Of a DNA stretch of 64,000 bases, positions 37,311-41,628 are shown piece after piece. A model generated the notes under the pieces. That model saw only the letters and a list, made by a program, of their open reading frames with translations. It had not been told where the DNA came from and did no database searches. Origin of the DNA: Dictyostelium discoideum (lineage: Eukaryota). Where the stretch lies: NCBI GenBank assembly GCA_000004695.1, contig CM000151.3, forward strand, positions 4,160,001-4,224,000, given 5' to 3'. The translations under genes were made by a program, and so were the position numbers. How positions within the stretch are numbered: position 1 is the stretch's first letter; each line of letters starts with the position of its first letter.

Positions 37311-39299
<1,989 letters not shown>

Positions 39300-39688: not shown

Positions 39689-40190
39689 CATTTATTAATT
39701 ATTAAATATATTATTAAATATATTATTAAATGTATTATTTTCATCAAGTTTTTTGGTTATAGTTCAAAAGAAATTTGAACTGCAATCCAAAAACTGCACT
39801 AGAGGAAATAACAGATAAGATGGTTTTATTGGCATCTTAGTGATATACTTGAAGAAATCAAAACCAAAGATGATTTGATAGAATGTCGTAATGATGAATC
39901 ACTTGTTTATTTTTAATAAGTGATGATGAAACGTCATCAAGGAAATGTTCATTAGTTAAAAGTAAGCTTTTTTTTTATAAAATTAATAGATTTTTTTTTG
40001 TAAATTAAACAGATTTTTTTTTTTATGAGTTTACAATTCCACATTAATTATTTTTAAATAGAACAACATTCGTCATCAGTAATAGATTTTTTGTAAAATA
40101 AATAGATTTTTTTTTTTTTTTTTTTTTTTTCAGTTTTTTTTTTTCAGTTTATTAAATTACATTTCTTGTTTTTAATTTATTTTTATTTAT

Positions 40191-40254
<64 letters not shown>

Positions 40255-40276
40255 GTAATAATAATAATAATAAATA

Positions 40277-41101
40277 ATGATTCCAATAAAACATCAAAAT
40301 TTTATAAAAGAAATAATTGAATTATTAAAAAATGATTCAAGATTTGAATGTTTACTAGGGGCAGGATCAATGATTAATGATGAAATGGATGAACATTCTG
40401 ATTTAGACTTAATGTTAGTTGTTAAAAAAGAAGAATTTTCAGAGATTATGCTAAAAAGAAAAGAATTTGCAATTAAATTAAATGGTTATTTATCTGGATT
40501 TACAGGTGAACATGTTGGAGAACCAAGACTTTTAATTTGTTTATATGAAAGGGATAATGAAAATAATCAAAATGATTTATTATTACATGTTGATTTAAAA
40601 TTTATAACATTCGATTCAATGATAAAAGAATTAATCGAAATGCCAGTTGTATTATGGGAGAATGGTGATAATAATAATAATAATAATTCATCAATTAAAG
40701 ATTTAATAAAAAATTCAAATGTAAAATGGCCAAATAAAGAACCACAATGGTTTGAAGATAGAATTTGGATTTGGATTCATTATTGTTTAACAAAAATTCA
40801 AAGAGGTGAATTATTCGAAGCTATTGGTACGTTATCATGGATTAGGGATCAGGTTTTAGGTCCAATGTCAAATCGTAGAATTGGATTAAATCAAAGAGGT
40901 GTTAGAAAATTGGAATTAATTTCTGAACCAATTTCAACATTACTAAAAACAACAATTCCTTCAAATATTGATAAATCTTCATTATATGAATCATGTAATA
41001 ATTGTATTACAATTTATATAAATTTAAGAAATGATTATCCTCCAAATAATATTATTAAAAATATGCCATCAGTTTTAAATAAAATTTTAAATAATATTTA
41101 A
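40277..41101 (+). CDS. Nucleotidyltransferase-fold protein of 274 aa, resembling bacterial aminoglycoside/streptomycin 6-adenylyltransferase (ANT(6)/AadK). It is a single exon.
   Basis: The N-terminal NTase motif reads 'LLGAGSMINDEMDEHSDLDLMLVV' (the GS...D.D pattern). The second acidic strand reads 'LLLHVDLKFITF'. The C-terminal helical region 'WPNKEPQWFEDRIWIWIHYCLTKIQRGELFEAIGTLSWIRDQVLGPMSN' parallels AadK 'EFDDCCNEFWMV..YVVKGLARNEILFAIDHLNEIVRPNLLRMMAW', as recalled from memory. Confidence 0.6.
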   Translation: MIPIKHQNFIKEIIELLKNDSRFECLLGAGSMINDEMDEHSDLDLMLVVKKEEFSEIMLKRKEFAIKLNGYLSGFTGEHVGEPRLLICLYERDNENNQNDLLLHVDLKFITFDSMIKELIEMPVVLWENGDNNNNNNSSIKDLIKNSNVKWPNKEPQWFEDRIWIWIHYCLTKIQRGELFEAIGTLSWIRDQVLGPMSNRRIGLNQRGVRKLELISEPISTLLKTTIPSNIDKSSLYESCNNCITIYINLRNDYPPNNIIKNMPSVLNKILNNI

Positions 41102-41190: not shown

Positions 41191-41628
41191 TTAAATAAAA
41201 ATACCTCTAAAACATTTTTTACCACAACCAATTCTATAACAACATTTTTGATTCTCTCCATAAGCTTTACAATCACTATCTTTTGTACATTGGTCAGTTG
41301 GTGAACAATATATTTCAATTCTATTTTTCGGACAATTTAAAGTTGCAGTAGTTAATACAGATTGGACCAAATTTGCTTTATTACTTGGAACATTTGATGA
41401 TGAGGGTTTTACAAATCCAGAACTTGTTGTTGTTGTTGTTGTTGGAGTATTTGTTGGAGTATTTGTTGGAATATTATTTGATGTAGGAATATTCGTCGTA
41501 GTTGTTGTGGTTTGATTTGGATTTGTAAATGTTACAGATGTTACCCCACAAATACTCAAATTTATAAACAAACAATTAATTAAAAACAAAAAAAATAAAA
41601 TTTTAATAAAATTATTTAACATCATCAT
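41191..41628 (-). CDS. Secreted protein of 145 aa with a signal peptide, a Thr/Asn-rich O-glycosylation-like linker and a C-terminal WAP (whey acidic protein, four-disulfide core) domain
   Basis: The sequence is 'MMMLNNFIKILFFLFLINCLFINLSICG...' followed by 'TTTTTTNIPTSNNIPTNTPTNTPTTTTTT' and then 'CPKNRIEIYCSPTDQCTKDSDCKAYGENQKCCYRIGCGKKCF'. The WAP pattern C-P-x6-C-x5-C-x5-C-x6-CC-x3-C-x3-C has eight Cys. Confidence 0.6.
   Translation of the reverse strand: MMMLNNFIKILFFLFLINCLFINLSICGVTSVTFTNPNQTTTTTTNIPTSNNIPTNTPTNTPTTTTTTSSGFVKPSSSNVPSNKANLVQSVLTTATLNCPKNRIEIYCSPTDQCTKDSDCKAYGENQKCCYRIGCGKKCFRGIFI

Follow-up and report, generated by a model that had tools for sequence, protein, structure and literature searches.

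A LinB-like two-domain nucleotidyltransferase of bacterial origin in Dictyostelium discoideum

The Dictyostelium discoideum gene DDB_G0274701 encodes a LinB-like two-domain nucleotidyltransferase of bacterial origin. The account that explains the data best, and that we think fairly likely, is of a bacterial enzyme captured and kept by the amoeba, where it probably serves in detoxification. The gene lies in a 64,000-nucleotide stretch of D. discoideum DNA (the window), the GC content of which is 11-36% throughout; the gene itself has a GC content of 0.233. A first-pass annotation made from the letters of this DNA had placed an intronless gene at 40277-41101, and the translation of this plus-strand open reading frame is indeed identical to XP_644044.1 (DDB_G0274701, Q555M2) of D. 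discoideum AX4. Since the two are exactly equal, the gene is intronless as annotated. Q555M2 is annotated as "hypothetical protein". In D. discoideum isolates, the protein is 269 to 275 amino acids long and its poly-Asn insertion differs in length.

The AF2 model of the protein has a pLDDT of 89.6 and shows the characters of the Pol-beta-like superfamily: an alpha/beta core with an hG[GS] motif, [DE]h[DE]h on the strand that follows, and a third carboxylate on a strand further along. The minimal nucleotidyltransferase motif quoted in the first-pass annotation, GAGSMINDEMDEHSDLDLMLVV, was found at residues 28-49. Residues 11-67 give weak matches to PF18765 and PF01909, and the latter is matched by 23 of the 25 members of the bacterial family that we scanned. 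G30 and S31 are present in all six dictyostelid proteins. In hhalign alignments, D106 falls opposite the E of LinB RGEFHF (Glu89) and opposite the D in KIDLTL of ANT(6)-Ia. Across the family, H79 and G81 reach a conservation of at least 90%, and the segment E78-H79-V-G-E82 may line the active site or the acceptor site. In the C-terminal domain, 13 residues (W158, E160, R162, W164, W166, H168, Y169, R176, G177, E178, E181, R190, and P196) each reach 90% conservation or more among 168 bacterial sequences and are kept in all dictyostelid copies. By hhalign, this block, residues 158-196, runs collinearly with the K..RGE helix that LinB and ANT(6)-Ia share; it may bind the NTP and the acceptor. All 31 columns conserved at 90% or more across the 168 bacterial sequences are retained in DDB_G0274701, including D42, D44, and D106, for which, as for the other individual residues, roles in catalysis are predicted. 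The poly-Asn insertion noticed on first reading occupies residues 132-137 in the context GDNNNNNNSS, and residues 133-136 are the only part of the model with a pLDDT below 50; in the second insertion, at residues 91-100, the pLDDT falls to 72. The features are collected in Table 1.

Table 1. Positions of DDB_G0274701, its domains and residues, and the neighboring gene in the window
Feature	Position	Strand	Remarks
DDB_G0274701, complete CDS	40277..41101	+	274 aa plus stop codon, ATG start, intronless
N-terminal nucleotidyltransferase (Pol beta-like) alpha/beta domain	40277..40660	+	About residues 1-128; from the secondary structure of the model
G30-S31 of the hG[GS] nucleotide-binding motif	40364..40369	+	Kept in 96-98% of 168 bacterial homologues
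D42-L-D44, two putative metal-binding carboxylates	40400..40408	+	96-97% conserved; aligned with LinB S-D-I-E (Asp40/Glu42)
E78-H79-V-G-E82 within the family signature FTGEHVGEPRLLICLY	40508..40522	+	Invariant in the multiple alignment
Asn/Asp-rich insertion ERDNENNQND, residues 91-100	40547..40576	+	No counterpart in P. violaceum or any bacterial homologue
D106 in HVDLKF	40592..40594	+	96% conserved; putative third catalytic carboxylate and general base
Low-complexity insertion D131, N132-N137, S138, S139	40667..40693	+	No counterpart in bacterial homologues
C-terminal all-helical domain	40694..41098	+	About residues 140-274
Most conserved C-terminal block, WFEDRIWIWIHYCLTKIQRGELFEAIGTLSWIRDQVLGP	40748..40864	+	Residues 158-196
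WAP-domain neighbor gene	41191..41628	-	145-aa ORF, tail-to-tail, 89 bp from DDB_G0274701

In build, DDB_G0274701 resembles enzymes that disable antibiotics by adding a nucleotide. It is a member of an unnamed family of bacterial proteins, the nearest characterized relatives of which are the lincosamide nucleotidyltransferase LinB, then ANT(6), then ANT(4'). A profile of the family, searched against the PDB, found LinB at E=5e-7 over residues 9-258 and no ANT(6) chain at E<=10. By hhalign, the same profile aligned with LinB at E=4e-5 and 19% identity, pairing D42, D44, and D106 with LinB D40, E42, and E89; Asp40, Glu42, and Glu89 are the catalytic residues of LinB (PMC4313920). The alignment with ANT(6)-Ia reached E=0.15, with a probability of 0.4%. 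A structure comparison against ANT(6) and LinB had been proposed on first reading, and LinB ranks first: Foldseek returned LinB at 9e-11 (TM 0.67-0.69), ANT(6)-Ib at 1.7e-7, and ANT(4') at about 1e-5. ANT(6) is the second-best structural match and not the nearest neighbor over both domains. LinB, or Lnu(B) (PDB 3jyy, 3jz0), and DDB_G0274701 have the same two-domain architecture, are of about equal length, and share the K..RGE helix; the full-length LinB-type fold, a nucleotidyltransferase core with a helical C-terminal domain, is present in the amoeba protein. However, the two are only 14-16% identical in structural alignments, and the bacterial family has invariant motifs of its own that LinB lacks: FTGEHVGEPRLLICLY, WPN, WFE.R.W.W.HY, and QRGVRR. 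PF21418 (LinB-like_C), which scores 183 bits on LinB itself, matched neither DDB_G0274701 nor any of 25 family members. The NCBIfam models for Lnu(B), Lnu(F), Lnu(G), and Lnu(H) stayed at or below 19 bits for family members, where the cut-offs are 450-540, and no NCBIfam Lnu or ANT model matched DDB_G0274701.

The first-pass annotation had called the protein ANT(6)/AadK-like, a label that we do not retain. Under this reading, DDB_G0274701 would be a true member of the ANT(6)/AadK family (PF04439) and would adenylylate streptomycin at the 6-hydroxyl, which we regard as improbable from the sequence comparisons. The PF04439 search that had been suggested (gathering threshold, 22 bits) gave no match for DDB_G0274701 even at E<=10, and BLASTP against ANT(6)-Ia (pRE25) gave E=1.3 with 21% identity; the PDB profile search and hhalign also go against the label, and LinB is closer. 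The parallel with ANT(6) is nonetheless real at a distance. Two bacterial family members, P0108 and P0119, pass PF04439 at 28.5-28.7 bits, with a match spanning up to positions 4-253 of 279, and 10 of 25 members match it weakly. ANT(6)/AadK (PDB 2pbe, 8vxb) resembles DDB_G0274701 in clade, in architecture, and in a collinear W..Y..K..R.E..A helix, although the superposition on AadK covers only 141 residues. The claim that the C terminus parallels ANT(6) block for block stood in part. Because hhalign places WFEDRIWIWIHYCLTKIQRGELFEAIGTLSWIRDQVLGP collinearly against FWNVTPYVIKGLCRKEILFAIDHFNQIVR, which comes from an authentic ANT(6)-Ia, the pattern given on first reading was accurate, and the C-terminal helix is collinear with the ANT(6)-Ia motif FWNVTPYVIKGLCRKEILFAI; the overall similarity, however, is not significant, and LinB has the K..RGE helix too. 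The distant link to PF04439 is real, and ANT(6) is the second-closest characterized family, not the home family of this protein.

We also considered a nucleotidyltransferase of the MNT-HEPN (type VII) toxin-antitoxin kind and rejected it. The MntA model scored 13.3 bits against a cut-off of 60. Such systems consist of an MNT of about 100-140 amino acids and a HEPN partner, whereas DDB_G0274701 has 274 amino acids and a large C-terminal domain, and there was no recurrent partner gene among 149 neighbors of bacterial homologues. Single-sequence scans with Pfam, NCBIfam, and PADLOC gave only sub-threshold generic nucleotidyltransferase, MntA, or PDC matches and were uninformative as to family.

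DDB_G0274701 descends from a bacterial gene by horizontal transfer. We found 5,134 homologues at E<=1e-3, and beyond five dictyostelid clusters, all are bacterial or metagenomic. The bacterial homologues are 40-46% identical to DDB_G0274701 over 97-100% of its length. The gene had been taken as lineage-specific, and among the 5.8 billion proteins searched, the only eukaryotic homologues came from dictyostelids. D. citrinum and P. violaceum each carry the gene, which answers the question of whether other dictyostelids have orthologues; a EukProt orthologue (P0004) is 59% identical. No orthologue was seen in D. purpureum or in groups 1-3, for which gene models may be missing. A dictyostelid-only profile, built from four sequences with P. 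violaceum among them, scored 465-509 bits on dictyostelids and at most 320 bits on everything else, with no other eukaryote found. In a neighbor-joining tree of 174 sequences, of the kind that the first-pass annotation had proposed, the dictyostelids group together in a single clade with 75% bootstrap support, and Dictyostelium alone does so with 97%. This clade is nested among proteobacterial sequences, with its sister group unresolved.

Most likely there was one capture, in the ancestor that Dictyostelium (group 4) shares with Polysphondylium violaceum, and the support for a single acquisition is moderate. In accepted dictyostelid taxonomy, Dictyostelium and Polysphondylium are sister lineages, which counts against separate acquisition, as do the 75% bootstrap for dictyostelid monophyly and a GAGSMI variant of the G-S motif that is common to all six dictyostelid proteins. 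The dictyostelid profile also gives P. violaceum a lead of 145 bits over the highest-scoring bacterium, a figure that is circular because P. violaceum was one of the four profile sequences. That the two lineages acquired the gene separately, from related bacteria, is rather unlikely, although several observations favor it. The P. violaceum protein shares 53% identity with alphaproteobacterial proteins (Pleomorphomonas, Reyranella, and Devosia) but only 49% with the D. discoideum protein, the Dictyostelium and P. violaceum loci are not syntenic, and the dictyostelid proteins have only three shared-derived sites, a number matched by 9 of 168 control groupings. This alternative bears on the history of the gene and not on its function.

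Following the transfer, the gene became part of its host. DDB_G0274701 is a functional eukaryotic gene, host-like in composition and vertically inherited. Its GC3 is 0.098; the ThrRS gene next to it has 0.093, and the values of bacterial homologues are 0.37-0.66. The gene order of MFS, nucleotidyltransferase, small gene, and ThrRS is kept in D. citrinum; in P. violaceum, FKBP and translin genes flank it. A comparison of D. discoideum with D. citrinum gives a dN/dS of 0.29, which indicates purifying selection with only moderate constraint. Dictyostelids eat bacteria, and the gene has neither an intron nor a characterized function, so we considered that bacterial DNA might have contaminated the assembly, or that the gene might be a decaying relic without function. 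Both are extremely improbable. The GC3 equals that of host genes, the Asn-rich insertions are typical of Dictyostelium, the contig is of chromosome scale with synteny in D. citrinum, and the gene is found in independent assemblies of several isolates. In addition, the reading frame is intact, and the dN/dS value and the retention of all 31 conserved residues argue against a relic. Composition, synteny, and selection effectively refute the contamination and pseudogene readings. The view that the gene is an old and since ameliorated horizontal acquisition is thereby upheld, on the strength of its bacterial homologues, its restriction to dictyostelids among eukaryotes, its composition, and its synteny.

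A published list gives 16 candidates for bacterial-to-Dictyostelium transfer, including ThyX, IptA, PscA, and OsmC (PMC3188802, Table 2). Like DDB_G0274701, these are bacterial-type genes that nest within bacterial sequences, absent from plants, animals, and fungi and common to group-4 dictyostelids. DDB_G0274701 is not in this table, and we found no mention of it in the searchable literature. The list was based on Pfam domains, and the protein has no above-threshold Pfam match, which is the likely reason for its absence there and probably for its being missed by domain-based screens. It is a well-supported addition to the few bacterial genes known to have become fixed in social amoebae, and it points to a widespread, unnamed LinB-like nucleotidyltransferase family in bacteria and on conjugative plasmids.

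This family is present in the genomes of at least 535 bacterial species from many phyla, including Enterobacterales and Bordetella. It is uncharacterized; its genes stand alone on chromosomes and are also plasmid-borne, and the FTGEHVGEPRLLICLY and QRGVRR motifs are conserved across phyla. We identified 37 plasmids that carry the family, 20 of them conjugative. On the IncP-1alpha plasmid pB5, the family gene PB5_0043 carries a Shine-Dalgarno sequence of its own and stops 10 nucleotides upstream of aph(3')-Ib, with which it is probably co-transcribed. In RP4/RK2, the family ORF upstream of aphA is split by IS21. PB5_0043 is a true family member, 41% identical to DDB_G0274701 over the full length (E=4e-74), but it comes from a bacterial plasmid, and its annotation says no more than hypothetical protein; the literature searched gave no functional statement on the ORF next to aphA of IncP-1alpha plasmids. 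We surveyed the neighborhoods of 79 bacterial loci. The 75 downstream neighbors represent 90 Pfam families and the 74 upstream neighbors represent 82, none seen more than three times. At these 79 loci, there was no conserved partner gene, and resistance genes were not enriched around chromosomal copies. Since no partner is conserved, guilt by association is usable only for the IncP-1alpha plasmids. A lone gene that also travels on plasmids is nonetheless resistance-like in its ecology.

From its sequence and fold, DDB_G0274701 is most likely an Mg2+-dependent transferase that places a nucleotide on a hydroxyl of a small molecule. The enzyme would be cytosolic, with no added targeting peptide, and it joins a nucleotidyltransferase core of the Pol-beta type at the N terminus to a helical domain at the C terminus. 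D42 and D44 would hold two Mg2+ ions, which bind the NTP, and D106 would act as the third ligand and general base, activating a hydroxyl of the putative small-molecule acceptor. The acceptor would be gripped by the conserved C-terminal block (W158...R210) together with the FTGEHVGEPR loop. Attack of the hydroxyl on the alpha-phosphate would then yield an O-nucleotidylated, probably inactivated compound and pyrophosphate. The most probable role of such an enzyme would be to detoxify a bacterial antibiotic or some other xenobiotic that an amoeba encounters in soil; that it modifies an antibiotic is suggested by homology, by the fold, and by a single plasmid association.

Family conservation is unusually strict for a resistance enzyme, and this, as well as the lack of resistance-gene enrichment in the chromosomal neighborhoods, speaks against an antibiotic role. 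Strict conservation of motifs across many phyla suggests one invariant substrate and could point to a conserved endogenous metabolite instead. We therefore considered that the target is a macromolecule or an endogenous metabolite, with a housekeeping or signaling role through protein AMPylation, RNA 3'-tailing, or modification of a cellular small molecule. The resemblances to enzymes of this kind span only a core of roughly 110-145 residues, whereas the C-terminal domain and overall architecture match only LinB, ANT(6), and ANT(4'). No HEPN, effector, or receptor partner is conserved alongside, and the PADLOC and MntA models gave no significant match. The family is also patchy, accessory, and plasmid-borne, and IncP-1alpha plasmids carry it coupled to aph(3')-Ib. 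A macromolecular or endogenous target is thus unlikely. Detoxification remains the preferred reading, and we tentatively propose a more specific form of it, which is possible at best: the family would be an unrecognized class of antibiotic or xenobiotic O-nucleotidyltransferases, including the RP4-type ORF beside aphA, with a specificity unlike that of Lnu and ANT enzymes, and the Dictyostelium copy would serve in cytosolic self-defense. If so, a resistance gene from bacteria would be doing its original job in a eukaryote, against compounds from the soil bacteria that the amoeba eats or competes with. Should the family act on an antibiotic, a resistance determinant would have gone unnoticed, and Dictyostelium would offer a tractable eukaryotic system for studying the role of such a gene after transfer. 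If it acts on an endogenous metabolite, its interest is more modest.

A viral vector for the transfer was considered and rejected. There are nine matches in IMG/VR, seven of them at the very end of contigs of 12-47 kb and none on a contig of giant-virus size; placement at contig ends looks like that of host genes at provirus boundaries.

The neighboring minus-strand ORF had been described as a secreted WAP-domain gene placed tail-to-tail with DDB_G0274701, and this proved correct, with a spacing of 89 bp. Its product has a hydrophobic N terminus and matches PF00095 (WAP) at 26.3 bits against a cut-off of 20.8. The gene encodes a small secreted protein and is context only, with no functional link to DDB_G0274701. 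It has no equivalent at the P. violaceum locus; in D. citrinum, a small minus-strand gene is found at the same position.

Throughout the extremely AT-rich window, GC content is 11-36%. Its uninterrupted nucleotidyltransferase (NTase) ORF translates exactly to XP_644044.1 (DDB_G0274701, UniProt Q555M2), a "hypothetical protein" of D. discoideum AX4. DDB_G0274701 is therefore intronless as annotated, as the first-pass annotation had proposed. The NTase motif quoted there, GAGSMINDEMDEHSDLDLMLVV, is present at residues 28-49, and the internal Asn run lies at residues 132-137. In A1, an alignment of 25 family sequences including bacterial members, this run and ERDNENNQND (residues 91-100) are insertions unique to the amoeba; both are low-confidence loops in the AF2 model. 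The WAP-domain gene that had been noted is also there, tail-to-tail and 89 bp downstream. An MFS_1 transporter gene sits directly upstream on the same strand, an adjacency kept in D. citrinum and not in P. violaceum. Such a transporter next to an enzyme that may modify drugs is suggestive, though the pairing could be fortuitous. The NTase start codon is directly preceded by a long (ATA/TAA)n trinucleotide microsatellite (~40190-40275), with long poly-T tracts further upstream (~40103-40145). In the threonyl-tRNA-synthetase (ThrRS)-like protein, the N-terminus is greatly extended and a poly-Asn stretch (NNNNNNNNNEEINDNNNNN) is inserted internally; its gene is possibly an organellar paralogue.

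Genes of the window and related plasmid ORFs (L010 and L011, plasmid loci)
Feature	Position	Strand	Details
LinB-like NTase ORF (DDB_G0274701)	40277..41101	+	uninterrupted, encodes 274 aa
WAP-domain ORF, hydrophobic N-terminus	41191..41628	-	PF00095, 26.3 bits (cut-off 20.8)
MFS_1 transporter gene	37908-39299	+	PF07690, E=6e-22
ThrRS-like gene, 698 aa	42893-44989	-	tRNA-synt_2b, HGTP_anticodon, weak TGS domain
LinB-like NTase ORF between parDE and aph(3')-Ib	L010 6001-7636 (pB5, CP002151.1)		annotated "hypothetical protein"
Corresponding IncP-1alpha ORF, IS21-interrupted	L011 6001-9771 (RP4, CP152305.1)		annotated "hypothetical protein"

The protein had been read as an ANT(6)/AadK-like aminoglycoside nucleotidyltransferase homologue. 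As a single query, it gave sub-threshold matches to a generic Pfam family (PF18765 Polbeta, E=3.4e-4), to the MntA model (13 bits) and, in the PDB, to LinB (E=0.15); a Pfam scan returned no match to PF04439. A protein database search returned 5134 homologues, with five dictyostelid clusters ranked first, followed by bacterial and metagenomic proteins of ~260 aa (full-length identity 40-46%, E ~1e-65). A1 defines a sharply conserved family with the signatures GGS..HGG.DEHSDLDL, FTGEHVGEPRLLICLY, LLHVDLKF, WPN..P.WFE.R.W.W.HY..TK..RGEL.EA, VLGP and QRGVRR.E. When searched against the PDB, the A1 profile matched LinB (3jyy) at E=5e-7, spanning residues 9-258, and no ANT(6) chain at E<=10. We then compared both enzymes directly, taking the authentic plasmid pRE25 sequence for ANT(6)-Ia and LinB from the A1-profile PDB alignment. 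With hhalign, A1 matched LinB at E=4.2e-5 (probability 70%) versus E=0.15 (probability 0.4%) for ANT(6), and BLASTP of the amoeba protein against ANT(6)-Ia gave E=1.3. The AF2 model was likewise nearer LinB (Foldseek E=9e-11, TM 0.67-0.69) than ANT(6)-Ib (E=1.7e-7, TM ~0.56). PF04439 is weakly matched by 10 of the 25 family members, and two bacterial ones (P0108 and P0119) exceed its threshold, the longer match reaching across positions 4-253 of 279; the link to this family is real, though distant. Unlike LinB, neither the amoeba protein nor the 25 members match PF21418, LinB's own C-terminal family, and no NCBIfam Lnu/ANT model came close to its own cut-off on family members. This places the amoeba protein in an unnamed, uncharacterised sister family within the two-domain antibiotic nucleotidyltransferase clade of LinB / ANT(6) / ANT(4'), with LinB its nearest characterised relative. 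The comparisons support an antibiotic-nucleotidyltransferase-like nature but not the specific ANT(6)/AadK label. pRE25 encodes a second "nucleotidyltransferase domain-containing protein" (L013 36346-37215) just ahead of its ant(6)-Ia / sat4 / aph(3')-IIIa cluster.

The likely chemistry can be read from the LinB alignment. By hhalign, S41-D42-L-D44 aligns to LinB S-D-I-E and D106 (in HVDLKF) to the E of RGEFHF, so that D42, D44 and D106 correspond to LinB Asp40, Glu42 and Glu89, the two Mg2+ ligands and third acidic residue/base (PMC4313920). These residues would likely support two-metal NMP transfer to a hydroxyl of the acceptor. Among 168 bacterial/metagenomic homologues, 31 columns are >=90% conserved, and the D. 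discoideum protein retains all 31, including G30, S31, D42, D44, H79, H104, D106, W158, E160, R162, W164, W166, H168, Y169, R176, E178, E181, R190, R210 and R251. In A1 the amoeba and bacterial proteins begin at the same position; since no targeting peptide was added, the amoeba protein is predicted to be cytosolic.

We searched a 5.8-billion-protein collection three times, the third with a dictyostelid-only profile. Eukaryotic homologues formed only five clusters, all listed as dictyostelid: two of D. discoideum / D. cf. discoideum (91-95% identity; the 95% cluster contains the exact AX4 sequence), D. citrinum (81%), a EukProt entry (59%) and Polysphondylium violaceum (48%). The dictyostelid-only profile gave dictyostelids 465-509 bits, and no other protein scored above 320 bits. 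At least 535 bacterial species-representative genomes carry the family (Alpha-, Beta- and Gammaproteobacteria, Firmicutes, Actinobacteria, Acidobacteria, Cyanobacteria, Bacteroidota, Myxococcota and Bdellovibrio), and across all of them identity with the amoeba protein stays flat at 36-46%. A neighbour-joining tree built from 174 sequences unites the six dictyostelid proteins in a single clade (bootstrap 75%; Dictyostelium alone 97%, discoideum/citrinum 100%) among proteobacterial sequences, without a resolved sister group. GC3 is 0.098, against 0.093 in the neighbouring ThrRS gene and 0.37-0.66 in bacterial homologues; the gene is fully ameliorated. D. citrinum keeps the order MFS transporter, NTase, small minus-strand gene, ThrRS; in P. 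violaceum the NTase gene is flanked by FKBP and translin genes. dN/dS between D. discoideum and D. citrinum is 0.29. Because of this distribution, tree, composition, synteny, flanking genes and dN/dS, both assembly contamination and a pseudogene are excluded. These data support bacterium-to-amoeba transfer, its age and its amelioration, as first suggested. The published table of 16 Dictyostelium transfer candidates (PMC3188802 Table 2) does not list DDB_G0274701, nor does any searchable literature mention it; the gene adds one case to known bacterium-to-amoeba transfers and one to known nucleotidyltransferases.

The evidence favours, without proving, one acquisition in the Dictyostelium-Polysphondylium ancestor. 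The P. violaceum protein is 53% identical to alphaproteobacterial proteins versus 49% to the Dictyostelium protein, the two loci are non-syntenic, and the dictyostelid proteins share only 3 derived sites, equalled by 9 of 168 control groupings.

In bacteria, the chromosomal family gene stands alone. Across 79 genomes its immediate neighbours represented 90 Pfam families on the downstream side and 82 on the upstream side, none recurring more than three times, with no HEPN, effector or biosynthetic partner. The family is carried by 37 plasmids, 20 of them conjugative. pB5 (IncP-1alpha) has an intact copy after parDE (41% identity to the amoeba protein, E=4e-74), with its own AGGAGA ribosome-binding site and a stop 10 nt before the aph(3')-Ib start. 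In the model plasmid RP4/RK2, IS21 splits this gene, so just a truncated copy is left. All characterised relatives O-nucleotidylate antibiotics. Given these relatives and a single, self-sufficient, mobile accessory gene, the simplest reading of the family is a small-molecule O-nucleotidyltransferase that probably serves detoxification. Motifs kept this strictly across phyla would also fit a conserved substrate that is not an antibiotic. The gene would be of greater interest if the family proved to be an unrecognised resistance class.

Most of the matched IMG/VR viral contigs, none of them from a giant virus, carry the gene at one end, a position that resembles a provirus boundary. In Providencia GCA_028616775.1 (L003 3748-6780), a prophage (integrase, Exc, phage genes) lies directly upstream of the family gene, at a position where other strains have a glutaredoxin gene; such insertion probably explains the "viral" contigs ending in it. 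On Bacillus cereus plasmid CP046513.1 (29831-30523), a family member with 42% identity (H25) occupies a stretch annotated as an "oxalate:formate antiporter", which suggests either mis-annotation or an overlapping gene missed by the annotation. In Kordiimonas (L004 4241-6783), the only genus where this was seen, a beta-lactamase-fold gene and a gene for GrpB, another nucleotidyltransferase-fold protein, precede the family gene on the same strand, GrpB by 60 nt.
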